DNA from: Candidatus Omnitrophota bacterium
GTDB lineage: Bacteria; Omnitrophota; Gorgyraeia; Zapsychrales; Zapsychraceae
Length of the DNA stretch: 64,000 nucleotides
Direction: 5' to 3'
NCBI GenBank assembly: GCA_028280285.1
Contig: JANQMA010000050.1
Span: 38,055 to 102,054 of the forward strand
In this document: piece after piece, positions 6,001 to 58,824 of the stretch
How the letters are laid out: every line of letters starts with the position of its first letter
Numbering within the stretch: position 1 is the first letter of the stretch
Notes under the pieces: model-generated
Told to the model about the DNA's origin: nothing
What the model saw: only the letters and a program-made list of their open reading frames with translations
The model's database searches: none
Translations under genes and position numbers: made by a program

Positions 6001-6947
6001 GAGAACCGGAAGAAATTTATCAATATTTTCTTGCGCCCGCCATGCGCGCTTTTCCTGAAGAGATAAAGGCCTTATCGAAAAAGGATACTCCGGATTCCGC
6101 CGCGATGAGTGATGGGGAGTTTAGGGAGAAAATGGGTCAGGCTTATCAGAGTGCTGTAAAAATATTAGCTGTGTTAAGAGACGCAACAAATCAGTTAAAA
6201 GAGGAGTTACCAAATACTGACCCAAAAATACATAAAGAAAAAATCAAAAGTTATGTATCGGGGATACATCATATGCTTATACATTATCTTGTAGGAGCAA
6301 GAGGAGCATTTTTGTTTTATCAGAATACACGAAATATAAATGGTAAAATTACGGCAGATCAATATGATAACTTAGTAAAATACTGGGAACTATTTAAAGG
6401 TCAATTTGATCAAATGGATCGTTTAAATGTTGATGAAAAACAACGGAAAAAAGAGGCGACAATAATTTTAAATAGTTTGGAGTTAAAGATTGAAAATCAG
6501 GAAGACTATTCTCTGGATAATTATAGATTTATGAAATTTTTAGTATGGGGAAAGGGATGGGGCAAATATTATAGTTGGATCAAAGATTTTCAATCAGAGA
6601 TTAACGATGACGTTGAGAAAATAGACGGTTTACTTAAGGAAGTCGAAAATAATTTTGTTGATTTGGCCGCGATGACAGATGTCGGGGGGATTGACTTAAA
6701 TCCTGAGCTTCTTAATATGGATATTGAATATGATGAAGCCGGTGTGCCGCTTCCGGCTGTGCAGCAACCGGTGATTAATATGGATATTGAAGGCTTCACA
6801 CCGGTGATTATTAATGTAACCCCAATCCCGAGTCTGCCGCTTATGCTGGGACTTGATGTTGATCAGAATGATGAGTCTAAACCTGACAGGCAGCAAGTGG
6901 CGTGGGAGTATGGGGAGCTTGGCTATGCCTTGCGTGAGCTTGATTAA
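18..6947 (+). CDS. Giant hypothetical protein (2309 aa or more). The frame is open back to position 3, so the gene may be 5'-truncated by the window edge. Charged, Cys-poor, with internal duplications.
   Basis: Uninterrupted 6.9 kb ORF. No signal peptide or TM segment is visible in the N-terminal part present in the window. Duplicated motif KWELIFA(M/I)A(D/E)V(I/V)D at nt ~418-459 and ~4660-4701, also similar at nucleotide level. Recurring DLAAM(S/T)D motif at nt ~2951, ~4996, ~6103 and ~6664. Tandem NMDIE units at the C-terminus. No catalytic motif recognised. Confidence 0.6.
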   Translation: MVKMLLAMTYSIEEAQEERKNSLSGLDKTRWEMVHYFAKAFKNDGGQYYDVEDVVRSIDGFHEIGRRKDLRMVLKKLTDVYLLADKLLMSKKRVWKVVNKNDPRWLRLRNGEKFDLYYDAKKMIEENRGDIQSKWELIFAMADVIDGMTEKSPVHLAKIQSDIQRKLSKPVAEDSVRGTLSLFENAHIIKIHKKSGSEVYSRRRGKKQQNRLNALMDKKRFIFVTERSALSDYFNAPLRDILNLDSASLQEHFETIEDEAEKMHGQMQGWINNMASEHKRQYYPEAYTEFATVIKTFWDDDEIVIQLQFVTGGLKSVAQRQLIQTTYKEFVNRLSKNTYFDQFTVETKPPKDVTKGSATIRILQKATVKTNRSQRAVLKWLFKQLDIGKIDQGRQGIAFNPIGIAHKIDGISNDGDVEETINHFELSVGDPKELLSSIKYSIDVAKLWFTVKAAKIIDASDPNYTLFDKFLDDIKPQTPKKKSFAKSPAPARSKKKGGDSFQYIRDSIKRVQRKKLLGDKSDSASFTSLPAVHRLAVVAWMLLQSYKDHKKDIDPLEIIKDIMLNNDQEDGDMVVQKVIGDLDFFVTEGVLNSSMDILEDRRLYSLKSGRGEQLSSFVAKSLDFHIAEILLQSKDDVVDLTTLEGRLQDFPGMRLIMAMGEYDGYFNYLRRHFKMHEVEGHMTESHEVDMWELLPEGKHYFEQHLQNVLGEMFFDSFDPVKALTGFKSDLLKPDDTKELLEVWQDNRPEYFRFRSKKKVLKFFLALIAEHSFFNQEYSMEIHGNIIRFKVIRAKNNDFLGAKFNIVYEDSLRPSRAKTYLSHFEVIEKNEKAYDGQLHILLKALLGVEREVERKADNKRIQDDLEKVVDWEKIDSGKQHVMALAGYIAQASFIPPVDSPQKILVFNEFQVVELMEKHFGKEVSEPYIQNLLADFHAKGVAQKLPKKEGSLNQQWGLEPHVKYLLSQINEGRTDLYELKNSASVDLAAILNRETVAQKILEIEPSIIGKIEFTARQLALKFGDTTDGSELEAILKQLEDERILRVYTMSGSTIKKWTVVDKDNLARIAESGSIEEKRNTLLNKWETLFLMAKIVYRRIQPGQRFNAGFLTAEINAIINNLEAIQKKPIHEKQVRQAADLLEAARMFKKQSTALGDFWIRADEIDNDIDVEYQLHRLSLKHQDELEKRRLQLQEPLEKYFRAGIDAIFHDEGTKADSAMLNNGSAAQTDFKSLNTVLDREDFHIIEEIILNMPSSASAIGVDSPYKQEKSLHFQTKRHDENALFISNDLFAIALDNHEPTFKIFIGYPLSKDKDPNQKEQKQIFNSVAGYLIKEFNSKSGLSKKYNFQKQKYRFDSDPIVLLQLDSSPLLSETVNSTNNKHIKTEIDGIALTLKDLEDWAKANPNKVWRGPKREIEKIFNSSNFVASRVLENNNIKVFGATTPQTQRLYDRLVEEYDIIAQLDRESLKKIAKEMDLQIQTIFDNLKKFKEVLDEGYSLEPIADPIEFVRAKRKNDLFYKQPLNDDWAKNDSPEKAMEGHAANNNSYTINDKWELIFAIAEVVDNIEPEQVFSAYYVYDEINQLLPKQVSGDELNAALDLFGFGSLIKLQNFGDNNRLWMRRTGSLQSDRINSLRVKEKILFAKPNFMKSYFRAESNEIMSQIDLAAMSDPVFLDIAKQLGKIIDGHEKLDFLRGDTERLGSVYAFNQGGEVQLAFNYNEGEPIIEINFVGARREKTRHKYNNGQKRELFDQTQSILFEKLNFFVAAEKYLLNKVPYEGVSGAWRTMFKLNRFGSDKKQQDAATMNDEVATPQSPFASEFLQDEKTRRKVLHAWQRLQVLAKQIQTKINETGIFEEVENLANRLAKNDSELSEDTYQRTVMQIQNDGKEVSEFISQWFKQESMEDYIYLKEGSDLRWKVAYDFIDKWNKILNSIFIDIYFLRFYLQRNDLSQFKETATHLKNDLDEGKDYAYKKMLENILRPTEENIFKDRNGAEQLGEPEEIYQYFLAPAMRAFPEEIKALSKKDTPDSAAMSDGEFREKMGQAYQSAVKILAVLRDATNQLKEELPNTDPKIHKEKIKSYVSGIHHMLIHYLVGARGAFLFYQNTRNINGKITADQYDNLVKYWELFKGQFDQMDRLNVDEKQRKKEATIILNSLELKIENQEDYSLDNYRFMKFLVWGKGWGKYYSWIKDFQSEINDDVEKIDGLLKEVENNFVDLAAMTDVGGIDLNPELLNMDIEYDEAGVPLPAVQQPVINMDIEGFTPVIINVTPIPSLPLMLGLDVDQNDESKPDRQQVAWEYGELGYALRELD

Positions 6948-7017
6948 ACTATAAACACTAAACAGTTAACAGATTTGGCTAAGTTTGTTTACTGTTTAAA
7001 GTTTATTGTTTATATAG
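6948..7017. repeat. Heptad-periodic palindromic intergenic element, AT-rich variant (AAACAGT / ACTGTTT arms)
   Basis: aaactat aaacact aaacagt taacag ... tttgttt actgttt aaagttt attgttt: 7-nt units followed by their reverse complements. Same architecture as 32896..32968. Confidence 0.6.
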
Positions 7018-7037
7018 TCACTAAATTTTAGTTCCCC

Positions 7038-7066
7038 TTGTCAACCAAAACCAACTCTGCTACACT
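7038..7066 (+). promoter_or_regulatory. Sigma70-like promoter TTGTCA-N17-TACACT, 6 nt upstream of the ATG (leaderless or near-leaderless mRNA)
   Basis: ttgtca 7038-7043, 17-nt spacer, tacact 7061-7066; ATG at 7073 with no room for a Shine-Dalgarno. Confidence 0.4.
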
Positions 7067-7072
7067 GACCCC

Positions 7073-7825
7073 ATGAAATACAAAAGCCTTATCTTTACCC
7101 TATTTTTACTCCTTTCAACTACAGCTTCCGCCGGGATTATCGAAATCGAACGCGCCTTCATGGAGCAGGATTATCCGCGGGCCGAGGTATTGGCCGAAGA
7201 AGGCCTTAAGCGGCACAAGGGTGGTGATGTAAGTCTTTTTCAGTATTATCTGGGCTTAAGCCACATCCGTTTAGGTAAATATGGCCTGGCTGCATCGGCT
7301 TTGAAAGACTTAGTTAATGATCAAACCATTCCGACCGATCTGCGTGATAAAGCACACCTGGCACTGATCGATGCCTATTATCTAGCCGGCAAATATGATC
7401 GGGCTGCCGTTCTCGCCGATCAGTTTAAGACAGCGAGTTATAATTCTGATTATTTGAGCCTGCTTTATTTAAAGTCGGCACGTATTAAGTTTAAACAGGC
7501 CGCGTGGACTGATGCGAGGCTCAAACTGCGTACGATCATTAATCAATATCCGGAAAGCTTTGATGTCTATCTGGCGGACCAATTTTTACAAGAAAAGATG
7601 TTCTTCTCGGTTCAGGTCGGCTCTTTTCGCGATCGTGCCCGGGCTAAGGATTTGGTATCACAATTAAAAGCAGAAGGCAAAACCGCCTATATTTTTGAAG
7701 TGAAAGATTATTCGGGACGAAAATTTTATCGTGTGCGTGTCGGTCAGGTGTCATTTCTCGATCAGGCCAAAAACCTGCAGGAAAAATTGGCTAAGCAGGG
7801 GTATCCAACAAGAATCTACCCTTAG
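7073..7825 (+). CDS. Secreted TPR-like plus C-terminal SPOR (peptidoglycan-binding) domain protein
   Basis: Signal peptide MKYKSLIFTLFLLLSTTASAG. The C-terminal ~75 aa (FSVQVGSF...YRVRVGQ...) matches the SPOR fold consensus. Confidence 0.6.
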   Translation: MKYKSLIFTLFLLLSTTASAGIIEIERAFMEQDYPRAEVLAEEGLKRHKGGDVSLFQYYLGLSHIRLGKYGLAASALKDLVNDQTIPTDLRDKAHLALIDAYYLAGKYDRAAVLADQFKTASYNSDYLSLLYLKSARIKFKQAAWTDARLKLRTIINQYPESFDVYLADQFLQEKMFFSVQVGSFRDRARAKDLVSQLKAEGKTAYIFEVKDYSGRKFYRVRVGQVSFLDQAKNLQEKLAKQGYPTRIYP

Positions 7826-37395: not shown

Positions 37396-38440
37396 ATCAA
37401 ATCATTATGCCGTTATTCTCGCCGGAGGTTCCGGCACGCGCTTCTGGCCGATGAGCCGTGCGTCCTATCCTAAACAATTCCTTAAAATTGTCGGCAATAC
37501 CAGCTTACTGCAGCAAACAGTGGCCCGTATTATCTCAACGATCAAACCGCGTAATATTTATATTGTAACGAATAAAAAGCAGGCCAAAGATGTCGCGACT
37601 CAACTGAAAGGCAGTGGCGTTCCCAAGGCTAACATTATGTGCGAGCCTGAAGGGAAAAACACGGCACCGGCGGTTCTTTGGGCGTGCACAACGATTTATC
37701 GTAAGAATAAGAATGCGATTTTTGCCATTTTGCCGTCGGATCATTTAATCACTAAGAAAAAGGATTTTATCAAGTGTCTTAAAAGCGCTTATCAATTGGC
37801 CGATCAAGATTATTTGGTTACCTTTGGGATTAAACCGACACGGCCGGATACAGGGTTCGGCTATTTAAAGACACGTAAAATCAAAGGCGATGTCTATAAA
37901 GTAGAGCGTTTTACCGAAAAGCCTTCAGCGAAAATTGCCACGCGCTATGTGCAATCGAAAAATTATTTTTGGAATTCAGGTATGTTTGTCTGGAAATGCG
38001 CAACACTTATGGCCAAATATAAAAAACATGCGCGCAAAATTTATAATCTGATTGGCGAAAATAATTCCGATCAGGCGATCAAACGCAACTGGAAGAAGTT
38101 GCCGAACATCTCCGTCGACTACGCGATTTTAGAAAAAGATAAAGATGTCGTTGCTGTTGCCGCACGCGACATCGGCTGGTCGGATTTGGGAAGCTGGGAT
38201 TCTTTGTGTGAAGCACTCGGCGCAGATAAAAACGAAAATATCATTCAAGGGGATGTGTTAATACATAACAGCCAAAACAACTATGTGAGCAGCTCTAAAA
38301 AACTTATCGCCTTAAGTGATGTTGATGATTTAATTGTGGTTGATTGTGACGATGCGCTTTTAATATGTAGGAAAGACGCTTCGCAGAATGTTAAAGTGAT
38401 CGTTGAGAAGTTAAAGAAGGATAAGCGAAAGGAGATATGA
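37385..38440 (+). CDS. manC: Mannose-1-phosphate guanylyltransferase (nucleotidyltransferase domain only)
   Basis: YAVILAGGSGTRFWPMSR...PKQF. Confidence 0.75.
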   Translation: MPNKSNHYAVILAGGSGTRFWPMSRASYPKQFLKIVGNTSLLQQTVARIISTIKPRNIYIVTNKKQAKDVATQLKGSGVPKANIMCEPEGKNTAPAVLWACTTIYRKNKNAIFAILPSDHLITKKKDFIKCLKSAYQLADQDYLVTFGIKPTRPDTGFGYLKTRKIKGDVYKVERFTEKPSAKIATRYVQSKNYFWNSGMFVWKCATLMAKYKKHARKIYNLIGENNSDQAIKRNWKKLPNISVDYAILEKDKDVVAVAARDIGWSDLGSWDSLCEALGADKNENIIQGDVLIHNSQNNYVSSSKKLIALSDVDDLIVVDCDDALLICRKDASQNVKVIVEKLKKDKRKEI

Positions 38441-45903: not shown

Positions 45904-46722
45904 CTATTTTAGTTTTTTTACATCCTTATTGCTCAGTAATGATTTCATTTGAGTGATGGCTAACTGATTCAATTGTTGAAGTCGCTCTTCTTGTTCCACT
46001 TCCTGACCAATCAGCATGGCGTTAATGCTTTCTAAATTAGTCATGACAACCAATTGCTCCAGAGCGGCATGATCTCTAATATTTCCTTTTTTATCTGGAT
46101 TTTCTTTGCGCCACTCTTGAGCGGTTTTCCCGAATAGAGCTGCATTCAGTAAATCTGCTTCATTAGCATAAATGAAATTTATTCTTTCTTTTGATATTTT
46201 AGGAGGTATTAAATTCTCTTTAATAGCATCGGTATGAATATGGTAATTAATTTTAGCTAAAGTTCTTTGCAAATCCCATTCAAGCTTTTTGGTTTTACTT
46301 TCTTGTTCTTTTAATCGTTGAAATTCCTTAACCAGGTATATTTTAAATTCCGCGCTAATCCACATGCCAAATTCAAAGGCAATGTCTTTATGGGCATATG
46401 TGCCGCCATATCGACCTGCCTGAGCATGTAGACCGATTGCTTTGGTCTTTTCGACCCATTCTTTGACGCTTATTTTATAATTGTTAAGCCCTGCCTGACT
46501 TTTAATTATGGCGAATCCGCCATAATTAAAATCTGGATTATGTATCTTTTCCCAAATCCCGAGATATTCGACAGTATTTCTATTTCTCAGCCAATCGGAA
46601 ATAAAAAAATTTCCATCTTTTGCCTTTATCATATCTGTCAGCGAGATAAAGTCTTGATTATTTTTTGTGAAAAGGTGGATTTTGGATCCCTTAACCTCAA
46701 TAATTTGATTTTCATTTTTCAT
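45904..46722 (-). CDS. KilA-N domain protein (phage-associated DNA-binding)
   Basis: N-terminus IIEVKGSKIHLFTKNNQDFISLTDMIKAKDG...WLRNRNT resembles KilA-N/APSES. Confidence 0.55.
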   Translation of the reverse strand: MKNENQIIEVKGSKIHLFTKNNQDFISLTDMIKAKDGNFFISDWLRNRNTVEYLGIWEKIHNPDFNYGGFAIIKSQAGLNNYKISVKEWVEKTKAIGLHAQAGRYGGTYAHKDIAFEFGMWISAEFKIYLVKEFQRLKEQESKTKKLEWDLQRTLAKINYHIHTDAIKENLIPPKISKERINFIYANEADLLNAALFGKTAQEWRKENPDKKGNIRDHAALEQLVVMTNLESINAMLIGQEVEQEERLQQLNQLAITQMKSLLSNKDVKKLK

Positions 46723-46754
46723 ATGTAAATTTTCTATTTTTGCAAAAAATTTGG

Positions 46755-47138
46755 CTATTCTTCTAACTTTCCCAACAACTCACTAAAAGCAGGGTAGTAG
46801 AGGTCGAGGATATGGACATGGATTTGTTTGATGGCTTCCTGACTGTAGATGTGGACGGTTTTGTTGCGGTCATCGATCATCTGTAAGAAAAGATTTTCAT
46901 CTTCAATGATTCCATCGTTAAAAGCTTCTTTAAAGACGTCTTTGGGATATCTTAGGTCTTTGCCTTTTTCCTTATAATAGAGCTTTAATGTTTTCCAGCA
47001 CAGCTCGTAGGTAAACTCGAACCGCTTGATTGCGCTGTCGCGTAAGATATCGGTCAAAGGCTCCTGCTCAATGACTTCTTTGAGCCGGTCGTAGGCCGCT
47101 TGCCATTTTTCATACGATATTTCGAATTCATTTTTCAT
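46755..47138 (-). CDS. HEPN-domain nucleotidyltransferase substrate-binding protein (HI0074 family), putative toxin/antitoxin partner
   Basis: HI0074-like fold signature FEFTYELCWKTLKLY...NKTVHIY. Confidence 0.65.
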   Translation of the reverse strand: MKNEFEISYEKWQAAYDRLKEVIEQEPLTDILRDSAIKRFEFTYELCWKTLKLYYKEKGKDLRYPKDVFKEAFNDGIIEDENLFLQMIDDRNKTVHIYSQEAIKQIHVHILDLYYPAFSELLGKLEE

Positions 47139-47424
47139 AAATTACCTTCCCCTGGCTAAGGACTAGTTTACGAAAATCCTCTTCGACATCATCTAAATAA
47201 ATAATATCCATTTGATAAAGGCCGATCACGTTTTCCAGATCGTCTTCTAGGTTTTTTTGAATGTCAAAATGTGGCTTTGTGCCGGTAACGGCAATATCAA
47301 AATCAGAGCCTGTGCGGTGCGTGTCTTTACTGCGGGAGCCGAAGAGATAAACGGTTTGTGGATCTATATGTTCTTTTAAGATAGCGATGGTGTGATTTAA
47401 GATTTCTTGCTCACGTTCAGTCAT
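47128..47424 (-). CDS. Minimal nucleotidyltransferase (MNT), partner of the HEPN protein
   Basis: LFGSRSKDTHRTGSDFDIAV (GS...DxD); overlaps the HEPN gene by 11 nt. Start taken at MTEREQEI; the track start translates the operator palindrome. Confidence 0.65.
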   Translation of the reverse strand: MTEREQEILNHTIAILKEHIDPQTVYLFGSRSKDTHRTGSDFDIAVTGTKPHFDIQKNLEDDLENVIGLYQMDIIYLDDVEEDFRKLVLSQGKVIYEK

Positions 47425-47435
47425 TGTAAAATAGT

Positions 47436-47481
47436 TAAGGGACGTATGCCTAATAATAATTATTAGGCGCACGTCCCTTTA
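47436..47481. promoter_or_regulatory. Near-perfect 46-bp palindrome upstream of the MNT/HEPN pair (putative autoregulatory operator; may double as the gap terminator)
   Basis: agggacgtatgcctaataat | aattattaggcgcacgtccct. Confidence 0.5.
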
Positions 47482-49144: not shown

Positions 49145-49251
49145 AATAATTAAGTAATGTGTCCCCTTAATTCATGTTGATTATTTTTCCATATCGTGTA
49201 TGATAGGGGCACTGTCAAGCACGGTTGTAAATCGTTATAACTCCTTACTTT

Positions 49252-51126
49252 ATGTTTATTTTACGGATATCTTTCTTTTCTCTGATTTTTCTGTTGATTG
49301 GCGAAAATCTGGCGTATGCCCAAGAAGATGAGCCTGTTGTTGTTTCTGAATATGAGACCGTCATTGTATCGGCTAAACGCATTGCCTCATTGAAAAGGAA
49401 CCTTGCGGAAAATACGATTGTCTTTACGGCAAGCGACATTGAGCAATTACCCGCCCGGGATTTAAGTGAATTATTGACCTATATGCCCGGAATCGACAGC
49501 CAGCTCAATGGTCAATTCGGTCAATCCACGTCATTATCCATTAATGGATCTTCGGCCCGGCAAGTTTTACTCATGGTCGATGGCATTCCCTTTAATACAC
49601 AGCTTTCTGGTCAGGCCAGCCCAACACAAATTCCCCTTGAACATATCGAGCGGGTCGAACTCATTAAAGGCGCCTCATCAAGTGCCTGGGGCTCAGGCCT
49701 TGGGGGTGTAGTGAATGTCATCACCAAAGATGTTGGTGATACCAAAGTACCCCGGGGAACGTATACCACATCCTACGCGGAATTCGCCACAACAAAAAAC
49801 AGTTTAAGTTTGTCAGGAGCATTGAAGGAATTTGGTTACTTTCTTTCGGGCAGTTATTTTAGAACGAATGGCATTTTAGATGTATCAGATGTTGAAGAAA
49901 AAAAGTTTTTTGGAAAATTAAAATATGATTTAAACGATCAAGCCGCGCTTACAGGATCTTTCGGGTATAGCGGGGCGGATGTATTTTATGGTGTTTCACC
50001 GACCGGAACATTGAGCCATCAGCCTTATAACACAAGGTATGGCAAGTTTAAATATGATTTTAACAATGACAATTTCCGGTTTGATATCGCTTATAAATAT
50101 AATGATCAGACTTTTACCACCAATACACTAAACCCTACAACAAAGGCTGTGACGTTTGCCACGATTAATTCAAATAAGTATCATGGGTTAAGCCTAAATG
50201 GAAGCACTGTGTTGTTTGATGATCATGTGCTTGTTTTCGGGTCTGATTTTGATTGGCATATATTAAAATCAAATAATTTTTTATCCTCATCAAAAAGCAT
50301 CAGCATGCAGGCACCGTATGTAAACTACACTCTTCCGTGGAATAATTTTGATTTTATCGGCGGGCTGAGGCATGACCACAATCAACAGTTTGGTTCACAA
50401 ACCAGTCCCAGTTTAGGTGTTGTGTATGATTTTAAGGATACCCGTGATTCAGTTGTGCGTGGAAAAATTTCAAGGGCATTTAATGCACCGCCGCTTTTGT
50501 GGATTTATAATCAAGATACAGCTTTTAAAATTAACCCTAATCCTGATTTAAAAGCAGAAAAAGGTATTTTGTATGAGCTTGGATTTGATACAAAGCTTAC
50601 ATCTGCGTTGGATTTTAAATTAAGCCTTTATCGAACAGATGTTAAGGATGCTATTGCACGGGTCGTAGACTCTTCCACATTTTTTTCAACTCAAGAAAAC
50701 TTTGAAAAATTCCGGCGCCAAGGCGGGCAGCTTCTGCTCGATTATAAAATTACCGATGAGATCACATTTTATGGAAGCGGTGCGTTTAATGATGTTGAGA
50801 ACCGGGCAACGGGTGAAACAGTAAGGGATCAGGGCATTGCCCGGCAGCGCTACACATTCGGTTTACGCTATGGCGATAAAAAAGGATGGCGTGCGCATCT
50901 ATCCGGCTATTATAACCGCTGGTCCTCTTCACCGTCGCTTGAGCCGAATGACCGTAAACCTATTTTTAATTTGCGGATCACAAAAGAATTTAAAAATGTT
51001 CAAGATAATATAGATGTAGAGGCATTTCTTTCCATCCATAATCTTACCAATCGCCAATACTGGTCAAGCAAAACCTTTCCTCTGGCCGAAAAATATATTG
51101 AGGGCGGGGTGTCATTGAGGTGGTAA
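49252..51126 (+). CDS. TonB-dependent outer-membrane receptor
   Basis: Signal peptide, TonB box/plug (ETVIVSAKR...), beta-barrel ending in aromatic W. Confidence 0.8.
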   Translation: MFILRISFFSLIFLLIGENLAYAQEDEPVVVSEYETVIVSAKRIASLKRNLAENTIVFTASDIEQLPARDLSELLTYMPGIDSQLNGQFGQSTSLSINGSSARQVLLMVDGIPFNTQLSGQASPTQIPLEHIERVELIKGASSSAWGSGLGGVVNVITKDVGDTKVPRGTYTTSYAEFATTKNSLSLSGALKEFGYFLSGSYFRTNGILDVSDVEEKKFFGKLKYDLNDQAALTGSFGYSGADVFYGVSPTGTLSHQPYNTRYGKFKYDFNNDNFRFDIAYKYNDQTFTTNTLNPTTKAVTFATINSNKYHGLSLNGSTVLFDDHVLVFGSDFDWHILKSNNFLSSSKSISMQAPYVNYTLPWNNFDFIGGLRHDHNQQFGSQTSPSLGVVYDFKDTRDSVVRGKISRAFNAPPLLWIYNQDTAFKINPNPDLKAEKGILYELGFDTKLTSALDFKLSLYRTDVKDAIARVVDSSTFFSTQENFEKFRRQGGQLLLDYKITDEITFYGSGAFNDVENRATGETVRDQGIARQRYTFGLRYGDKKGWRAHLSGYYNRWSSSPSLEPNDRKPIFNLRITKEFKNVQDNIDVEAFLSIHNLTNRQYWSSKTFPLAEKYIEGGVSLRW

Positions 51127-51236
51127 CCGTAAATGATAAAATGGGTGAAAAATGTCAGTTTTAGGATCCATAATGTCATTTAAATTAGTTTAATGCTGGT
51201 TTAAAGTGCGCTCTCGCTAGTTAATCATTCCTACTT

Positions 51237-52913
51237 ATGATGGTTTTTATCCGAACGCTTCTCATTTTATTTATTATGACCATGGAAATCCTCTTACCGC
51301 CAGAGCTTGTTGCACAGCCCAGTACTTCGGCGCAAAATGTCAGTTCACAGAAACCATCCATAAATCCCCGGCAAGAGAGCAGGCCTGTTTATGGAGGGAC
51401 ATTACGCTGGGGTGTTGCGACAAAGCCGACGATTATTAATCCGATCCTTACACAAACAGGCGTTTCTGCCACCATTGCACAGCTGATATCAGATCCATTA
51501 GTAAGAATTGACCACAGAGGTAATCTTGTTCCAGGGGTGGCGAAGTCATGGGGTATTTCCGAAGATGGCCTTGTCTATACCCTTCATTTAAGGCCGGGTG
51601 TTTTGTTTCATGATGGGGTTGAATTAACAGCCGAAGACGTTGTCTTTACCTATAATCAAACGATTGATCCTAAAAATAACTCTCCTTTTCGATCTCATTT
51701 TGTCTTAGTGAAATCCTTTGAAGCTATAGACCGTTACACGTTTAGGATTACATTAAAAGAGCTTTTCCCTAATCTTCTTGGGAAATTATTTTTAGAAATT
51801 ATACCTAAACATATTTTAAAAAATGAAGATTTACATAATACTGATTTTAATTATAACCCAATCGGGACCGGACCTTTCCGTTTTGTCTCCTGGGACCAAG
51901 AGTCGCACAATATTAAATTGGAAACGAATCCTGATTATTTTGAGGGCAGGCCTTATCTCGATGGCATTGATATAAAGTTGTATGACGACAATGAGCGGGT
52001 TTGGATCGGGCTCATGCAAAAAGAAATTGATTTGGCTCAATTTATCAGCCGGGAGAACTTTCTTCATATTAAAAATGATGATGCGTTTAAAAACTATAAA
52101 TTTTCTTTCGGGATGTATTATGCCATGCGTTATAACCTCAAAGATTCCATATGGCGTGATAAAGAATTGCGCAAGGCGGTCGCATATGCGATTAATAAAA
52201 AAGATATTATGAAAAGACTGCCTAAGTTTGATGGGGCTGAAAGCACAGGGCCTTTTCACACATCTTCGGAAGGGTATGATCATGCGATTAAACCTTTTGC
52301 CTATAATCCGGTCAAGGCCAAGCAGATATTGATGCATCGCGGGTGGAAGGCTTTGAGCCAGGATGTCTATGGTGGGGAAAACACGATACGGACCAAACAT
52401 GGGCAAGAGTTGGAGTTGAAAGTACTGGTTAATACAACTAATGACATTTACAAAAATATTATTGCCATGATGCGCCAGCAATTATCAGAGATCGGGATAA
52501 AGTTAATTGTCTTGCCCTATTATGACGAGAAGGAATTGACAGAGGAGTATCTTAATGAGCATCAACCGCAGGCATGGCTGAGGATTTTTGTGGGGCATGG
52601 ACTTGATAAATTTGATAATTATGATGCGGCCATTAATTGGTATTCATTATCTGATCGAGAAGGAGAATGGTGGAATTATAAAAATGAAGAAGTTGACGCT
52701 CTTTTTGAATTATCAAGAAGGACTCAAGACAAGATAGAAAGAGTTACGATTTATAAAAGAATCCATCAAATTGTCTATGAAGATCAGCCGGCTTGTTTTT
52801 TATTCTTTCCTGAATTTTATTTTGCCATCAATGCGAATTTTAAAAATACCGACGATTATTTTTCGATGGGCATGTCCACATGGATGATCAAGGATTGGTA
52901 TTACAGGCCTTAG
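51237..52913 (+). CDS. ABC transporter substrate-binding protein, family 5 (peptide/oligopeptide/nickel type)
   Basis: Signal/TM N-terminus; GGTLRWGV...DPLVR...LVPGVAKSW as in SBP_bac_5. No permease or ATPase genes adjacent. Confidence 0.75.
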   Translation: MMVFIRTLLILFIMTMEILLPPELVAQPSTSAQNVSSQKPSINPRQESRPVYGGTLRWGVATKPTIINPILTQTGVSATIAQLISDPLVRIDHRGNLVPGVAKSWGISEDGLVYTLHLRPGVLFHDGVELTAEDVVFTYNQTIDPKNNSPFRSHFVLVKSFEAIDRYTFRITLKELFPNLLGKLFLEIIPKHILKNEDLHNTDFNYNPIGTGPFRFVSWDQESHNIKLETNPDYFEGRPYLDGIDIKLYDDNERVWIGLMQKEIDLAQFISRENFLHIKNDDAFKNYKFSFGMYYAMRYNLKDSIWRDKELRKAVAYAINKKDIMKRLPKFDGAESTGPFHTSSEGYDHAIKPFAYNPVKAKQILMHRGWKALSQDVYGGENTIRTKHGQELELKVLVNTTNDIYKNIIAMMRQQLSEIGIKLIVLPYYDEKELTEEYLNEHQPQAWLRIFVGHGLDKFDNYDAAINWYSLSDREGEWWNYKNEEVDALFELSRRTQDKIERVTIYKRIHQIVYEDQPACFLFFPEFYFAINANFKNTDDYFSMGMSTWMIKDWYYRP

Positions 52914-52950
52914 CCTTTAACCGTTTTTAATCTTGAAAGGAGGTGATAGA

Positions 52951-53064
52951 GTGGAAATTATCCAACAAGGGACCGAAGATATTACAGAAATGGATTCGCT
53001 TTCATGTTGTTGGCCGCCAGGGACTATGAACTTTCACTTTGGAGCGCCTGAGGAAATGGAATAA
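52951..53064 (+). CDS. Small acidic peptide (37 aa), candidate RiPP precursor or signalling peptide
   Basis: GAAAGGAGGTGATAGA-GTG: perfect SD 7 nt from the GTG start. Encodes (M)EIIQQGTEDITEMDSLSCCWPPGTMNFHFGAPEEME. Sits 137 nt upstream of an rSAM-SPASM gene. Absent from the track only because it is under 60 aa. Confidence 0.55.
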   Translation: MEIIQQGTEDITEMDSLSCCWPPGTMNFHFGAPEEME

Positions 53065-53201
53065 ACCCGGTAAAACAAGGTCGTATTGGCATATAGCAGA
53101 CAGGTATTGATGCACCGCTTAACATTTGTACTTTAAATTAAGAAGAGCAAGACAGCAGATTCATCATATAGCCAATACGGCCTTGTAGATAGGATAAAGA
53201 T

Positions 53202-54611
53202 ATGAAAATTTCAAGTCATACGATTATTGTTGAGGATTATCCATCTAGAGGCGAACATCTGGTTTATAGCACACGCACACAGTTTCTCGGTAAAATTGAC
53301 GAGCGCTTAAGAGATGTCTTAAAAAATTTAGGATCTGAAAATTACTTTCTCGATAGTGAAGATAAAAATAATCTGGCCCAACTATATCGAAGAGGAGTCC
53401 TGGTTCGGGACAAGGAAGAAGAACAGCAAAAACTTAAAGAACATCTGAGGCAAATTAAGCATGGGTATAGCCGGTCTAAATTGGTTGTTACTATTTTAAC
53501 CACCTATGCCTGTAATTTTAAATGCACCTATTGTTTTGAAGAAAGCTCACGGGAAAACATTAAGCTCAGTTTTGAAACACAAGAGCATGTGATCAGCTGG
53601 CTTAAGGGTCAGATGAAACAGTTTGGTTATCAGAGTTTAAATATTAATTATTACGGTGGTGAGCCGCTTCTCAATCAACCGGCGATCGATAACATTTCCT
53701 CTGTTATGAAAACCTGGTGTGAAGAGCGACAGATCGGTTTTGCTATGTCCATTCAAACAAACGGCTATCTGTTAACACCGGAAATTGTTGAAAGGTATAA
53801 AAAGTTAAATTTAATCTCTATCCGTATCAGTGTTGACGGTGTTGGAGAAGATCATGATAAAAACCGTCCTCTGCGTGGTGGTGGGGGAACCTTTGAAAGG
53901 ATTATTCAAAATATCTGCGACTGTGTTGATTTGATCTATATTGGGATATCGATCGGTTTTGAAGGTGGTGATGTGAAACCAATTGAAAGGCTTTTAAATC
54001 ACTTTGATGATTTAGGGATATTGCACAAGTTGGGGCGCATCATTTATTCACCTATTAATCCGACATTAGGCGGCAAAGGCCAGCCGCAGGCGATACGCAG
54101 TTCTGATTGCATGTGTAATTCAGAAGATGCGGTTTTTTCGCGTTCGGTTAAACGGATTAATGAACTGTTGGATCAAAAGGGTATTCCTGAAAAAACCAGC
54201 GGGATGTCGACATCTGTGTGTCCACTGACACGGGAAAACGGTGGCGTGACCATTGATCAAGAGGGGCGTTTATATAAGTGTAATTCATTGCTAGGCCATC
54301 CGGAGTTTGCGGTGGGTGATGTCCGCCAGGATAAGTTTAATGAAACAGGCAATGAGTTTCGGGATCTAGATGTGTGGAAACAGTGCCCGACCGATTGTAC
54401 CTATCTTCCCATGTGCAGCGGTGGCTGCCGTTTGATGTCTTTTGTCGGTGGACACAAAAACTTTAGAGTGCCGTCTTGTAAAAAGGTGTATATGAATGAA
54501 ATGGCCCCTGAATTTATCAAAAGAGACTATGACCGGCTGGTTGAAAATAGCCGTAAACAAATGAAAGGAGAAAGCAGGCCTCAACTGGTGAAATCCGCCA
54601 GTATAAAATAA
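53202..54611 (+). CDS. Radical SAM / SPASM-domain peptide-modifying enzyme with an N-terminal RRE-like extension
   Basis: ~95-aa N-terminal extension (HTIIVEDYPSRGEHLVYSTRTQFLGKIDERLRDVLKNL) resembling PqqD-type RiPP recognition elements. CNFKCTYC rSAM cluster. C-terminal SPASM region with 7 or more Cys (CPLT...CNSLLG...CPTDC...CSGGCR). Confidence 0.75.
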   Translation: MKISSHTIIVEDYPSRGEHLVYSTRTQFLGKIDERLRDVLKNLGSENYFLDSEDKNNLAQLYRRGVLVRDKEEEQQKLKEHLRQIKHGYSRSKLVVTILTTYACNFKCTYCFEESSRENIKLSFETQEHVISWLKGQMKQFGYQSLNINYYGGEPLLNQPAIDNISSVMKTWCEERQIGFAMSIQTNGYLLTPEIVERYKKLNLISIRISVDGVGEDHDKNRPLRGGGGTFERIIQNICDCVDLIYIGISIGFEGGDVKPIERLLNHFDDLGILHKLGRIIYSPINPTLGGKGQPQAIRSSDCMCNSEDAVFSRSVKRINELLDQKGIPEKTSGMSTSVCPLTRENGGVTIDQEGRLYKCNSLLGHPEFAVGDVRQDKFNETGNEFRDLDVWKQCPTDCTYLPMCSGGCRLMSFVGGHKNFRVPSCKKVYMNEMAPEFIKRDYDRLVENSRKQMKGESRPQLVKSASIK

Positions 54612-54644
54612 TCTTTTGAACAAAAAAGAGTTCTGTAGTAGGCT

Positions 54645-56480
54645 ATGTATTCAATGAAGCAACTTGCCCAACTTCTTAGACGATGTATACCGAAAAAAAT
54701 ATGGCTACAGGCATTTCTGGTATTGGTGTGCGTTATTATTATTCCTTTGATTGTGCTCGGCGCCCTGCTTGTTAATACCAGTCAGAAGGCTATTAAAACA
54801 TCTGTTTTCCGTGACCACAAAGAGGTGGCTGTTCATGCCACGGACAAGGTCGAAGAGCATATCAAAGGCGCACGGCAGTCCATCTTGGTGACAGCTTCTA
54901 TCCTCGGAACACTCCATGCCGATTCATGGCGGCAAGAAACAGCGATTGTTGAACTATCTCTGCGCAATCCCGCTTTTCAGCGTATTGCATCGGTTGACCT
55001 CAATGGAGAGGAAATTGCCAGCTCTGAGCTTGGCAGTGCGCCTCAAAATAGAGGTAATGAAGAGGCGTTTCAACAGGCCATAGCCGGTGCATCGTATATT
55101 TCTCACATTAAAATTTCTGAAGATCAAATACCTTATCTGACCCTGGCTGAGCCGATTAAAGAGTTTGGACAAGTTAAGGGTGTTTTAATGAGCGAACTTA
55201 ATGTAAGAAGTGTTTGGGATATTATTGATAATATTCATTTCGGCGAAACAGGCCGAGCATTTCTGATTGATCACCATGGCCGGATTATAGCCCATCCGGA
55301 TAAAAAACGTGTCCTTCAAAACGAACATATTCCTTACCCAAGTATTTTAGAAAGTATATTATTAGGCCAAGCAGGAAATATGGAAAAAATAAGGGAGGAT
55401 GGAGAGCGTTTGTTGATTTCTTATGCACCGGTTGTTAATCCCGATTGGGGCCTTGTTATTACTCAACCTGAGCGCGAAGCCTATGCTTTTTTAACGGTGA
55501 TGAAGCTTCAATCATGGGGGACTATTTTATTAAGTGCTTGTGTTGCTATGATTTTGAGTTTACTGCTTGCCAGATACATGAGTCGTAACATCGAAAATAT
55601 TGTCTCAGGCACGCAGCGTGTGGCCAAAGGAGATTTTTCACATCATTTTCCGATTAAACAGCGAAATGAAATCGGCAAGCTTCTTTTTTCATTTAATCGT
55701 ATGACATCGAAGCTGCGTAAGGCACGGGATGTGGAAAAATTATCTGTTATCGGTAAGGCGGCGGCAGCCGTCGCGCATGAACTTAAAAATTCACTTGTGC
55801 TTATCACAACGTTTGTTGAGCTTTTGCCCGAACGTCATCGTGATAAAAAATTTATTAAAGAATTTTCCGAGACGATACCGAAAGAGCTTGACAGTTGGAA
55901 TACATCACTTCGCAACATGATGGTTTTTTCACGGAGTTATTCCAGTTTCCCAACTTATGATACAAATGTTAATGACATTATTAAAGAAATAAGTCTTCTA
56001 GCAAAAATGAAGGCGCGGCAATTGGATATTCATTTTAATGAAAGTCTTGAACAAAATATTTCTTTGATCAATGGCAATAAAGATAAACTTAAACAAGTTT
56101 TGTTAAATCTTGTTACGAATGCGCTGGAAGCAACCCCGGGTGGTGGTCAAATAGATGTCGTGACACGCAATATTGTATCGGATAAATCAAAAAATGGTTC
56201 GGCTGATCGCTATGTTGAGGTTTCTGTATCCAATACGGTGAGTGATGGCTGTCCGGATGATTTAGATAAAATTTTTAATCCGTTTCATACGACCAAAGCA
56301 GGTGGTCTCGGTTTAGGCCTTTCGATCAGTAAAGAAATTATGGACCGTCACAATGGCAGCATTGATGTTTCATTTAATGAAGAGAATCAGTCGCTGTGTT
56401 TTGTTGTTAAGTTACCTGTTACATCTGAAATGGCATCGCGTGTGATTCCTCAAATACCATCAGTTAAATCACATCTTTGA
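54645..56480 (+). CDS. Sensor histidine kinase with periplasmic Cache-like domain, HAMP, HisKA and HATPase
   Basis: TM1, ~280-aa periplasmic domain, TM2, HAMP, H-box AHELKN, N/G boxes NLVTNALEAT and GGLGLGLSI. Confidence 0.8.
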   Translation: MYSMKQLAQLLRRCIPKKIWLQAFLVLVCVIIIPLIVLGALLVNTSQKAIKTSVFRDHKEVAVHATDKVEEHIKGARQSILVTASILGTLHADSWRQETAIVELSLRNPAFQRIASVDLNGEEIASSELGSAPQNRGNEEAFQQAIAGASYISHIKISEDQIPYLTLAEPIKEFGQVKGVLMSELNVRSVWDIIDNIHFGETGRAFLIDHHGRIIAHPDKKRVLQNEHIPYPSILESILLGQAGNMEKIREDGERLLISYAPVVNPDWGLVITQPEREAYAFLTVMKLQSWGTILLSACVAMILSLLLARYMSRNIENIVSGTQRVAKGDFSHHFPIKQRNEIGKLLFSFNRMTSKLRKARDVEKLSVIGKAAAAVAHELKNSLVLITTFVELLPERHRDKKFIKEFSETIPKELDSWNTSLRNMMVFSRSYSSFPTYDTNVNDIIKEISLLAKMKARQLDIHFNESLEQNISLINGNKDKLKQVLLNLVTNALEATPGGGQIDVVTRNIVSDKSKNGSADRYVEVSVSNTVSDGCPDDLDKIFNPFHTTKAGGLGLGLSISKEIMDRHNGSIDVSFNEENQSLCFVVKLPVTSEMASRVIPQIPSVKSHL

Positions 56481-56672
56481 ATCAGTATTTTCTTGAATAA
56501 TGATGGGGATCTTATTATCAATAAATAGTTTATGCGATTTTAGTAGAAAAAGGTTAGTTTTTTTGACTTTTAGCCCATTTACAAGAAAAATTGAATGCAT
56601 AGAATAAATGGAATCCTGCGGCTTAAGCCGTCGCAGCCTTTTGTTCAATGACTTATCAGTTGGGAGGTAGTT

Positions 56673-57398
56673 ATGTTATCTGAAAAAATTGTAGTTATTG
56701 ACGATGATTCCAGGATCGTCAAAAGTTTGAAGATGGCGTTGATTGGCTATGAGATCAAAGATTTTTCTGATGCCAAAACCGCGCTCAATTATTTGTGTAA
56801 ACCAAACATGATTCATTTGGTTATGCTTGATATTATGATGCCGGGGATTGATGGGCTTAAAGCGCTTCAAGAAATCAAAAAAATTAATAAAGATATCGCG
56901 GTTATTATGATGACCGCTTATAGCACAAAGGATGTGGCGATCGAAGCCTTGCGTCTTAAGGCGGATGAGTTTATTGAGAAGCCTTTTCAGGTTAATGATG
57001 TCAAATCGAAGATCCAGAGGATTTTGCATGAAAAATTGCAAAACGGCCAGGTTAAAAGCAGTAATGGCGGATATGTTGACCGCATTAAGACTTTTGTTAA
57101 ACGCAATCAGAAGAATGCGACTTTGGATTTTATAGGCGAAGAAATGTCGCTCAGTCCTAAATATATTAGTCGCATGTTTAGTAAAAAGAACGGGGTTAGT
57201 TTTCGTGACTTTAAACTACAAACCAAAATTGAGAAAGCCAAAGAATTGCTTAAAAAATCTCATTTAAATATTACAGAGATTGCCTTTGAGTTGGGGTATC
57301 AAAACCCTGAATCATTTATGCGTCTGTTTAAACGTTTAACTAATTTAACACCCTCGCAATATAGAAAGAAGTTCGGTAAAAGAAAAATACGCTGTTAA
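56673..57398 (+). CDS. Response regulator, REC plus AraC-type HTH
   Basis: VIDDDS...LDIMMPGIDG...MMTAYS...EKPF receiver; C-terminal AraC HTH (ITEIAFELGYQNPESFMRLFKR). Confidence 0.8.
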   Translation: MLSEKIVVIDDDSRIVKSLKMALIGYEIKDFSDAKTALNYLCKPNMIHLVMLDIMMPGIDGLKALQEIKKINKDIAVIMMTAYSTKDVAIEALRLKADEFIEKPFQVNDVKSKIQRILHEKLQNGQVKSSNGGYVDRIKTFVKRNQKNATLDFIGEEMSLSPKYISRMFSKKNGVSFRDFKLQTKIEKAKELLKKSHLNITEIAFELGYQNPESFMRLFKRLTNLTPSQYRKKFGKRKIRC

Positions 57399-57411
57399 CC
57401 AAAATGAGGAA

Positions 57412-57801
57412 ATGATGATGAATCAGAAAATTCTTGTGATCGATGGTCATCCTGTGTATATCAAAAAAACCGAAGGTTTTTTAAGGGGACTTACCTTGCA
57501 AAATATTACGCTTGCTAAAACTGGCGAAGAAGGGCTTATCAGATTTAAGGCGGATGCTCCCGATTTAGTTATTTTAAGCGGCATGCTGCCGGATACAAGT
57601 AGCGTCGATGTGTGCGCGGTGATCAAAGAACATAATCCGCGTATAGTGGTGATTGTTCAAACCGGTCTTTTCACGTCGGACGAGACGATCAAAAATTTCA
57701 AGGCGTGTGGGGCGGATTTCATTTTGGAACGCCAAGAAAAAGATTTAAAGCCGCTTCAGGATGCGGTTGAGGATTTTTTGTGTAAGTCTAGTCGTGCATA
57801 A
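57412..57801 (+). CDS. Stand-alone receiver-like protein lacking the phospho-acceptor Asp (pseudo-receiver)
   Basis: Receiver fold, but the ISDWNMP position reads ILSGMLP (Asp to Ser). The acidic pair reads DG, and the conserved Lys position is not Lys. Confidence 0.6.
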   Translation: MMMNQKILVIDGHPVYIKKTEGFLRGLTLQNITLAKTGEEGLIRFKADAPDLVILSGMLPDTSSVDVCAVIKEHNPRIVVIVQTGLFTSDETIKNFKACGADFILERQEKDLKPLQDAVEDFLCKSSRA

Positions 57802-57885: not shown

Positions 57886-58080
57886 TTGCATTGGAATGCT
57901 GAGTGACTGAAATCGTCTTCCAAAAAATAAACGATTTCCGGAACGAAGCAGCCAATGCAGAAACCTAACGAGAGCTTTATGTATGATTGGTAGTATTCCT
58001 CGCTTCGAACAGTCCTCGCGCTATTTTTGCTACTACAAAAATTAGCGCTGCGGATACTCGCTCGTGAATACTACCAATCA
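57886..58080. repeat. Two adjacent long hairpins in the 5' region of the kinase-like gene, the second with 15-bp perfect inverted ends
   Basis: First hairpin: tgcattgg...gaaatcgt...acgatttc...ccaatgca. Second hairpin: tgattggtagtattc ... gaatactaccaatca with heptad-like interior. An extended -10 (tggtataat) lies at 57841-57849 upstream. Confidence 0.55.
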
Positions 58081-58089
58081 ATTTTTACT

Positions 58090-58824
58090 ATGTTAAAAAA
58101 ACCAAAAATCAAAATCGATGCCTTTGGTTTTCAGCCGGGCGATACTATTCTGAGCAAATATGAAATTATCGATAAGCTAGGCTCCGGCTGGGAAGGAGAG
58201 GTTTATAAGATCAAAGAGATTGCGACGGATATTGAACGAACAGCCAAAATCTTTTTCCCGCAACGCAATATCCGCAATAAAGCCTCCCGTTTTTACGCCC
58301 GCAAATTACATAAATTAAGACAGTGCCATATTGTTATTCATTATCATAATGAAGAAACGATCTATATTGATGGTATTCCGATTACTGTTTTGATTTCTGA
58401 ATATGTGGAGGGAGCGCTGTTTTCGGATTTTCTTCAAAAGTTTCCCAGAAAGCGGTTAACCCCGTTTCAAGCGCTACACCTGCTTTACGCGCTTGCGCGA
58501 GGCATTGAGGAAATTCATCTGCGCAATGATTATCACGGCGATCTGCATACCGATAATATTATTGTGAACCGCTTTGGCCTCAACTTTCATTTGAAGCTTT
58601 TGGATATGTTTCACTGGGGTTCGCCAACAAAGAATAATCGCAATTACGATTTAACGTGCTTGGTGAGGATTTTTTATGAGTCCCTTGGTGGGGCTAAATA
58701 TTATGCCAAGCTGCCTAAGGAGATCAAATATATTTGCTGTGGTCTTAAGGATTCATTGATCTGTAAACGCTTCAAAACTGTCTCTCAGCTGCGTGAGTAT
58801 CTGGAGAAGATGCAGTGGAAGTAA
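58090..58824 (+). CDS. Protein kinase-like domain protein (Kdo/WaaP/RIO-like lipopolysaccharide kinase family)
   Basis: Gly-rich GSGWEGEVYK, catalytic-loop-like HGDLHTDNII. The track N-terminus translates the hairpin; start taken at MLKKPK. Confidence 0.5.
   Translation: MLKKPKIKIDAFGFQPGDTILSKYEIIDKLGSGWEGEVYKIKEIATDIERTAKIFFPQRNIRNKASRFYARKLHKLRQCHIVIHYHNEETIYIDGIPITVLISEYVEGALFSDFLQKFPRKRLTPFQALHLLYALARGIEEIHLRNDYHGDLHTDNIIVNRFGLNFHLKLLDMFHWGSPTKNNRNYDLTCLVRIFYESLGGAKYYAKLPKEIKYICCGLKDSLICKRFKTVSQLREYLEKMQWK

Follow-up and report, generated by a model that had tools for sequence, protein, structure and literature searches.

A gene cassette built around a 37-residue peptide and a radical S-adenosylmethionine (rSAM) enzyme was analysed in a 64,000-nt stretch of DNA from a Candidatus Omnitrophota bacterium (assembly GCA_028280285.1, contig JANQMA010000050.1, forward-strand positions 38,055 to 102,054), referred to below as the window and numbered from its first letter. 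The balance of the evidence favours its reading as a divergent system of the geopeptide class, that is, one making a ribosomally synthesised and post-translationally modified peptide (RiPP) with an rSAM maturase, organised as a cassette that would produce, recapture and sense its own product. The functional unit extends over 49252..57801 and has nine parts, all on one strand (Table 1); a preliminary description made from the sequence alone had placed the start of the module at 52914, a boundary that has to be moved upstream to 49252. Since the peptide/enzyme pair belongs to a curated, unstudied family, the system is not of a new kind, being rather a distinct variant whose conserved cassette suggests a function for the whole geopeptide family.

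The precursor peptide gene and its maturase

Direct reading of the sequence confirmed the short open reading frame (ORF) of the preliminary description, with AAGGAGG 7 nt before a GTG start codon and a stop codon at 53064 that lies 137 nt before the ATG of the rSAM gene at 53202. The product, (M/V)EIIQQGTEDITEMDSLSCCWPPGTMNFHFGAPEEME, has a leader-like segment in residues 1–18 (EIIxxG[TS][DE]..), a core beginning with Cys19-Cys20 (CCWPPGT) and an acidic tail end. For comparison, 49 distinct related loci were gathered from genomes, metagenomes and exact-protein look-ups. Sixty-six of the 80 loci from a first genome scan, which used generic rSAM patterns, held unrelated rSAM genes and were reused as negative controls, and a second scan, based on C-terminal patterns particular to the family, contributed 35 useful loci.

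Of the 45 loci whose sequence extends beyond the 5' end of the enzyme gene, 41 have a homologous small ORF there on the same strand, its stop codon usually 60–140 nt (range about 4–390 nt) before the start of the enzyme ORF; conservation of the peptide beside homologous rSAM genes had been named as a check on the original reading. The sister genes start with ATG and have a ribosome-binding site at a fixed distance, which in many of them appears in frame as KGG three to four codons before the Met. The deduced peptides share the consensus M-E-[IV]-I-x-x-G-[TS]-[DE]..., with exactly 18 residues to an invariant Cys-Cys and then [WFY]-P-x-G-[TS], and end in variable C-terminal tails, acidic in some (PEPEE) and basic in others (LRIR).

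When 38,320 stop-to-stop segments, taken from 128 loci and the window, were scanned with a profile built from these peptides, 46 matches were obtained at E<1e-4, all on the strand of the enzyme and just upstream of an rSAM gene of the family. The E-values of the cognate precursors ranged from 1e-18 to 6e-5, the best non-cognate segment reached E=0.11, and zero matches were obtained in the 66 unrelated rSAM loci. Among 33 distinct precursor sequences, the ratio of non-synonymous to synonymous differences (pN/pS) was 0.43 with synonymous sites near saturation, codon-position entropy was highest at the third position (36.6 versus 19.9 at the first and 15.5 at the second), and all four synonymous codon pairs were in use for Cys-Cys. 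The conserved ORF, the separation achieved by the profile, the pN/pS value and the conserved ribosome-binding site together indicate that the window precursor is a real gene under coding-type selection.

The enzyme matched the rSAM model PF04055 with 68.6 bits (cut-off 29.5) and the SPASM model TIGR04085 with 45.3 bits (cut-off 27). In agreement with the earlier recognition of an rSAM protein with a SPASM cysteine cluster, C104/C108/C111 (CX3CX2C) and C340/C360/C395/C399/C405/C409 were invariant in 28 homologues, with C303 and C426 nearly so. No match to the Pfam PqqD and SPASM models was obtained with the enzyme or its N- and C-terminal fragments. The best NCBIfam match, over residues 1–442, was TIGR04280, 'geopeptide radical SAM maturase' (237.7 bits), and was followed by the CefB, TIGR04463, Clo7bot, FlmE/OhkG, PapB and SCIFF maturases. 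The best solved fold match of the AlphaFold model (predicted local distance difference test score, pLDDT, 86.7) was CteB (5WGG, E=1.3e-18, whole-length match), ahead of TigE, and CteB was also the best match among PDB sequences (E=3e-18). Relatives of the enzyme at 42–68% identity come mostly from Candidatus Omnitrophota assemblies.

The N-terminal 92 residues, modelled alone (pLDDT 89.8), form three strands followed by three helices. In fold comparisons of this domain PbtF, TglI, MibB, SuiB, TbtB, MccB, LynD, McbB and NisB ranked above generic winged-helix DNA binders, and the first seven Foldseek matches were proteins with a RiPP recognition element (RRE), with weak E-values. An N-terminal sequence profile gave chance-level matches only against PDB sequences. 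The maturase N-terminus is predicted to be an RRE (PqqD-like winged helix), an assignment based on the predicted fold because PqqD sequence models do not detect the domain, as is usual for such divergent domains. Of the RRE/PqqD-like character attributed to it earlier, the RRE-like fold is borne out by the model, and the likeness to PqqD is not recovered by sequence models.

An assignment as anaerobic sulfatase maturase, which had been named as an outcome that would speak against a peptide substrate, was rejected: the enzyme scored 75.3 bits with TIGR03942 (cut-off 349), a predicted RRE is present and the cassette contains no sulfatase gene. The enzyme groups instead with peptide maturases, and the 37-residue peptide and the enzyme are very probably a precursor/maturase pair. 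The original reading of the region as a RiPP-like rSAM locus is thus supported by the conservation of the peptide and the grouping of the enzyme.

Placement in the geopeptide family

The sole NCBIfam match of the window peptide was TIGR04229, 'geopeptide' (E=3.2e-4, 20.4 bits). Both partners therefore find their best match in the geopeptide models, below the curated cut-offs of 400 bits for the maturase and 30 bits for the peptide, and we conclude from these comparisons that the window system is a divergent sister clade of the geopeptide family, beyond the reach of the curated models and probably from Omnitrophota. Full members were found among the related loci: the enzymes of a Nitrospiraceae locus (L009) and a Desulfobacteraceae locus (L014) reached 535 and 570 bits with TIGR04280, and both loci carry a CC peptide at the same position and a receptor gene directly upstream. 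A search with the L014 enzyme gave 2,071 proteins at E<=1e-60, many of them named 'geopeptide radical SAM maturase' by NCBI; the window clade has at least 120 cluster representatives.

Precursors of the canonical clade, such as MAEEKREETKEQIAVLDEGIKMDDIVDSFGICCSGPLTPFR and MKEERIIIIDEGIDEVNPDGWQACCWGPLFAFRG, follow the same plan, and a profile–profile comparison aligned them in register with those of the window clade (P=0.002). Cys-Cys is the sole element conserved across the precursors of both clades, some canonical precursors being without any acidic or aromatic residue. The peptide, which had at first seemed impossible to place in a described RiPP class, can thus be placed as a divergent relative of the geopeptides. 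TIGR04280 is a 'hypothetical equivalog' and the family is defined bioinformatically only; a literature search found no publication on it.

Of the four canonical loci obtained by protein look-up, three (L124, L126 and L129) have the order receptor–peptide–rSAM, accompanied by a divergent operon in which the gene of a PF04392 binding protein overlaps that of a hybrid sensor kinase. Against the receptors of canonical loci the window receptor scored 202–250 bits, but only 62 bits against an unrelated receptor from one of the sister genomes; when the L124 receptor served as query in the reciprocal search, scores with unrelated receptors were 44–59 bits. Because the receptors of both clades are related and the binding proteins and kinases are non-homologous, the receptor–peptide–rSAM triad looks like the old core, to which a binding protein and a kinase have apparently been attached with different parts in each lineage.

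In L126, positions 6253–7749 between the receptor and maturase genes are occupied by nine tandem units of 166 nt, 100% identical, each of which encodes the precursor MKEERIIIIDEGIDEVNPDGWQACCWGPLFAFRG with its own ribosome-binding site. These copies could be a real gene amplification or an effect of assembly.

In the window, a long stem-loop separates the precursor and maturase genes (minimum free energy −37.3 kcal/mol, z=−3.97; 0 of 200 shuffles folded equally well). The spacer after the precursor was more stable than mononucleotide shuffles in all 30 sister loci in which it could be delimited (z from −2.1 to −9.8), mostly through one strong hairpin, in several cases followed by U-tracts; the presence of the hairpin is kept among the sister loci and its sequence is not. 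Such a hairpin behind the precursor gene is the usual route by which RiPP operons obtain an excess of precursor transcript, and the conserved hairpin and the nine tandem precursor genes of L126 can be taken as signs of high precursor expression. Tandem Cys codons with a strong hairpin between them and the next gene could also be expected of a regulatory leader peptide, a Cys-codon attenuator that would act on the rSAM gene through the hairpin and would not be a substrate. This explanation was considered and rejected as very improbable: amino-acid conservation extends over 25 residues, with the pN/pS value given above, well beyond the Cys codons; the hairpin begins 10 nt past the stop codon, and folding of the window spacer found no alternative pairing that overlaps the ORF; the enzyme carries a predicted peptide-recognition domain; and nine identical tandem copies would make no sense for an attenuator.

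The conserved cassette and a candidate route of recapture and sensing

The gene order TonB-dependent receptor, family-5 binding protein, peptide, rSAM enzyme, [ABC exporter], dCache kinase, REC-AraC regulator and REC protein, all on one strand, was found in 27 sister loci. Orthologues of the receptor precede the peptide/rSAM pair in these loci, with the binding protein between receptor and peptide, and the genes outside the conserved block differ between genomes. Receptor and binding protein are accordingly to be regarded, from this synteny, as conserved parts of the cassette and not as bystanders.

Table 1. Parts of the cassette in the window, with positions counted from the first letter of the 64,000-nt stretch.
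Feature	Position	Strand	Features and support
TonB-dependent outer-membrane receptor, 624 aa	49252..51126	+	Signal peptide, TonB-box-like ETVIVSA, Plug, 22-strand barrel (Pfam Plug, TonB_dep_Rec_b-barrel)
Orphan family-5 periplasmic solute-binding protein, 558 aa	51237..52913	+	Sec signal; PF00496 (SBP_bac_5), 271 bits
Ribosome-binding site AAGGAGG	52937..52943	+	7-nt spacer to GTG start; read directly
Precursor peptide, 37 aa	52951..53064	+	GTG start, TAA stop ending at 53064; homologue profile; TIGR04229 match
Long stem-loop between precursor and maturase	53075..53186	+	Inverted repeat, arms of 16 nt, 94% complementary
Radical SAM/SPASM peptide maturase, 469 aa	53202..54611	+	RRE-like ~1–90, rSAM core C104-x3-C108-x2-C111, SPASM ~340–430
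Sensor histidine kinase, 611 aa	54645..56480	+	Transmembrane segment, periplasmic dCache_1, transmembrane segment, HAMP, HisKA, HATPase (Pfam)
Response regulator	56673..57398	+	Canonical REC (DD, D, T, K present; CheY alignment) and HTH_18/AraC-type helix-turn-helix (Pfam); synteny conserved
Stand-alone Asp-less receiver (pseudo-receiver)	57412..57801	+	PF00072, 43 bits; second acidic residue replaced by Gly

Pfam domains and the annotation of the cassette bore out the earlier account of these neighbours: a TonB receptor and a family-5 binding protein upstream, with neither permease nor ATPase, and a Cache-HAMP kinase and REC-AraC regulator downstream. The pseudo-receiver noticed earlier has Ser in place of the phospho-acceptor Asp, at the position of CheY-D57, in the window and in 10 of 10 aligned homologues. 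The kinase gene lies downstream of the rSAM or ABC exporter gene in nearly all loci with enough sequence. The window receptor has no STN signalling domain by Pfam, and its best NCBIfam matches are the BtuB, haem and siderophore receptors. The closest solved relatives of the binding protein are the oligopeptide-binding AppA of B. subtilis and peptide/nickel binders; neither the window cassette nor any annotated sister cassette encodes an importer permease or ATPase to go with it.

In most sister loci an ABC exporter, an MsbA/HlyB-like half-transporter without a C39 peptidase domain, is encoded between the rSAM enzyme and the kinase. The corresponding gap in the window (54611–54645) measures 33 nt and shows no visible remnant of an exporter when compared with L081, L084, L085 and L086. 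The sister loci that lack the exporter are not each other's closest relatives.

The base composition of the cassette is the same as that of its surroundings, and a scan of 48.4–58.2 kb for consensus promoters and terminators gave counts near the shuffled expectation. The 192-nt gap between kinase and regulator (56481–56672) contains a promoter-like site at 56578–56605 and a terminator-like hairpin at 56616–56636 followed by CCTTTTGTTC; on account of these elements, the last two genes, those of the regulator and pseudo-receiver, may form a transcript apart from that of the biosynthetic genes. Upstream of the window receptor (region 49155–49215), a 14-mer GTGTCCCCTTAATT stands 93 nt before the start of the gene, with a partial inverted copy, GGGGCAC, across the promoter-like TTGATT-16-TATGAT. 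In L085 (region 3660–3720) its reverse complement, AATTAAGGGGACAC, stands 42 nt before the receptor gene. Only the window and L085 were found to have the motif, so it is not family-wide, and it may be an operator of close relatives or a chance occurrence. In L002, L110–L113, L115 and L120–L122, an extra response regulator with an NtrC/Fis-type C-terminal helix-turn-helix (...LGIHRNALFNKMKSLGLKK) ends just before the receptor gene; these loci form a more distant Omnitrophota sub-clade whose peptides have basic tails.

In the model that we favour, the RRE would bind the beta-strand-like leader (EIIxxG...), and the enzyme would abstract hydrogen in the core and make use of the family-wide invariant Cys19-Cys20. 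One or two thioether crosslinks of the sacti- or ranthi-type to nearby residues of the Pro/Gly-rich turn would be the most likely outcome. Such Cys-to-carbon links within the turn are favoured by analogy, because Cys-Cys is the sole element kept across the clades and the nearest characterised relatives make thioethers; formylglycine-type Cys oxidation or another crosslink is a possible alternative. The small product would then be exported, in most sister loci by the MsbA/HlyB-like half-transporter; the window has no exporter gene, and an unlinked exporter would therefore be needed there. Secretion is suggested by the exporter in most loci and by the nine identical tandem precursor genes of L126.

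The extracellular product would re-enter the periplasm through the dedicated TonB-dependent receptor and be bound there by the orphan family-5 binding protein. The dCache kinase would read either the loaded binding protein or the peptide itself and phosphorylate the REC-AraC regulator, which would control the cassette, with the pseudo-receiver as a modulator. The peptide might travel empty, as a signal within the population or among kin, or it might bring a metal with it. SBP_bac_5 is the main peptide-binding family, and the stimulation of sensor kinases by solute-loaded binding proteins is an established mechanism (PMC10443332). Sensing by the kinase is proposed because a transporter-less binding protein that always occurs with a kinase having a periplasmic sensor fits such a loaded-binding-protein mechanism.

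Several points weigh against this model. At the level of the biosynthetic pair, four of the 45 loci have no recognisable peptide adjoining the enzyme, both partners miss the curated geopeptide cut-offs, and neither the Pfam PqqD model nor the N-terminal sequence profile finds an RRE. As to the cassette, the ABC exporter is absent from the window and from seven sister loci (L004, L088, L091, L098, L100, L103 and L107), no leader peptidase is encoded in it, and in L130, one of the canonical loci, neither receptor nor binding protein nor kinase is encoded in the vicinity. The coupling of binding protein and kinase is inferred from gene neighbourhood, and an unlinked Opp/Dpp-type permease could be what the binding protein supplies instead. 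The literature search found no measured modification, export, uptake or binding for any member of the geopeptide family.

A metallophore is a rival reading. The matured peptide would then chelate a metal such as Ni, Cu, Co or Zn with its vicinal cysteines, or with groups formed from these, receptor and binding protein would serve in uptake as MbnT/MbnE (methanobactin) or CntA/NikA do, an unlinked inner-membrane importer would take over the metal or chelate, and the kinase would only tune expression, as PfeS/PfeR do for enterobactin. TonB-dependent receptors typically import metal chelates, in line with the NCBIfam matches given above, relatives of the binding protein include NikA, NikZ and CntA-type nickel/metallophore binders, the sole invariant residues of the core are two cysteines, and methanobactin operons likewise combine a receptor with a permease-less orphan family-5 binding protein. 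Against this, none of the roughly 45 cassettes contains a metal-responsive regulator, reductase or permease, and cysteines converted into thioethers by the rSAM enzyme would be poor metal ligands. In the canonical clade, moreover, the binding protein belongs to another family, PF04392, and its gene overlaps that of the kinase, which points to sensing over transport; the known ligands of PF04392-family proteins are aromatic amino acids (PMC10443332). A metallophore is, on the whole, unlikely.

The short precursor and the rSAM-SPASM enzyme with its RRE would suit the synthesis of a cofactor as well, intracellular or scavenged, in which the peptide would be the scaffold of a small redox-active product as in the mycofactocin or PQQ systems (PqqA/PqqD/PqqE, with PqqU as receptor). 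PqqU imports PQQ, a RiPP-derived cofactor, and is among the weaker NCBIfam matches of the window receptor (82 bits, cut-off 1200). This is improbable, given that the cassette has no further tailoring enzymes, peptidase or dependent dehydrogenase, that most loci encode an ABC exporter, that CC is the sole invariant while the C-terminal tails vary between acidic and basic, and that a row of nine precursor genes, as in L126, is suggestive of bulk secretion.

The exporter of the sister loci, and the fact that many rSAM thioether peptides are bacteriocins and that CteB, the closest solved enzyme, is among the thioether-forming maturases, would agree with a microcin-like antimicrobial that kills competitors, the receptor, binding protein and kinase then being an unrelated nutrient-sensing module or immunity. 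Against such a product, no immunity-type gene is present, a producer whose operon also encoded a dedicated importer for the toxin would make itself sensitive, and the receptor is inherited together with the peptide/rSAM pair across phyla and so is no chance neighbour. We regard an antimicrobial as quite improbable; since the producer keeps a dedicated importer in the same operon, the product is more likely beneficial to take up than a toxin.

To return to the favoured model of production, recapture and sensing, its logic appears, from the gene contexts, to have arisen two or more times from binding proteins and kinases that are not homologous, once among Omnitrophota and their relatives and once in Thermodesulfobacteriota. 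Tentatively, and with less confidence than is placed in the model for this cassette, geopeptide-type RiPPs might be a form of peptide signalling for two-membrane bacteria, in which an rSAM-crosslinked peptide would be secreted, taken up actively through the outer membrane by a dedicated TonB-dependent receptor and sensed in the periplasm through an orphan binding protein coupled to a kinase.

What is new here is a sister clade missed by the curated geopeptide models, and a peptide/enzyme pair that travels with an outer-membrane importer, an orphan binding protein and a sensor kinase, a logic that recurs with unrelated proteins in the canonical clade. For a family that owes its name to curators working from genome context, the label 'radical SAM protein' thereby gives way to a concrete hypothesis, that of a secreted peptide re-imported and sensed by its producer. 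The chemical ecology of the organisms involved (Omnitrophota, Auribacterota and sulfate reducers) is essentially unexplored, and a 37-residue peptide with a two-Cys core offers a minimal substrate for finding the chemistry of the enzyme. If the signalling reading is true, it would mean a new route of peptide-based cell–cell communication in diderm bacteria and would give a family of more than 2,000 database members its first assigned function.

Two neighbouring regions of the window lie outside the cassette. At 45904–47472, on the minus strand, three small genes stand beside a GAPDH gene. By eye, we take a 114-aa ORF to contain a minimal nucleotidyltransferase motif (GSRSKDTHRTGSDFDIAV) and an overlapping 127-aa ORF the R-x4-H motif typical of HEPN partners, a pair that would presumably be toxin–antitoxin-like; a 272-aa ORF seems to us, likewise by eye, to resemble KilA-N/ORF6N-type proteins. 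At 57984–58824, a perfect 15-nt inverted repeat (57984–57998 / 58066–58080) extends across the TTG start codon of a protein-kinase-like ORF of 265 aa (Pkinase 44 bits, weak match to the MAD6 defence kinase), which is just outside the cassette and is not conserved in the sister loci.

Comparison with known systems

The maturases of SCIFF/ranthipeptides and sactipeptides (CteB, PapB, TigE) share with the window enzyme the RRE, rSAM and SPASM architecture and a substrate with Cys in its core, and the window product would, by analogy, probably fall in their thioether class. The window maturase nevertheless scores far below the cut-offs of their models (SCIFF 89.8 versus 425 bits, PapB 124.5 versus 340 bits), and its precursor has two adjacent cysteines only, in contrast to the multiple CxxxD/CxxxxxC repeats of SCIFF/ranthipeptides. 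These systems are not known to occur in a context of receptor, binding protein and kinase.

Methanobactin operons pair a Cys-containing RiPP with a dedicated receptor, MbnT, and an orphan family-5 binding protein, MbnE, under product-responsive regulation, and thus share with the window cassette the combination of TonB-dependent receptor and family-5 binding protein. They differ in the modifying enzymes, MbnB/MbnC (MNIO/DUF692), whose genes are absent from the window cassette and the annotated sister cassettes, where a radical SAM/SPASM protein takes their place; in regulation, which is by sigma/anti-sigma factors there and by a two-component system here; and in the receptor, that of the window having no STN domain.

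Kinases and chemoreceptors that depend on a binding protein, such as LuxP-LuxQ and DppA-Tap, likewise combine a transporter-less periplasmic binding protein with a PAS/Cache-like sensor. In the window the interaction of binding protein and kinase is putative, and the proposed ligand differs in being the cell's own ribosomal peptide, which would need to be taken through the outer membrane by a TonB-dependent receptor beforehand.

The closest system is that of the geopeptides, mostly from Thermodesulfobacteriota. The maturase match covers the enzyme over its full length (residues 1–442), and the precursors have in common a hydrophobic beta-strand-like leader with Gly, about 12 further residues, then CC, about 20 residues from the N-terminus, and a short Pro/Gly-rich core. 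In both, the precursor gene lies directly upstream of the maturase gene and is itself directly preceded by that of a related TonB-dependent receptor, a feature observed here and outside the curated definition, and a binding protein and a sensor kinase are encoded nearby. The window enzyme is, however, only about 30% identical to canonical members, and the precursors of its clade have the aromatic-Pro core motif CC[WFY]PxG[TS] and a longer tail. A family-5 binding protein and a dCache kinase are found where canonical geopeptide loci have a PF04392 protein and a hybrid HAMP kinase, and the window clade adds to these a REC-AraC regulator, a pseudo-receiver and usually an ABC exporter, with all genes on one strand.

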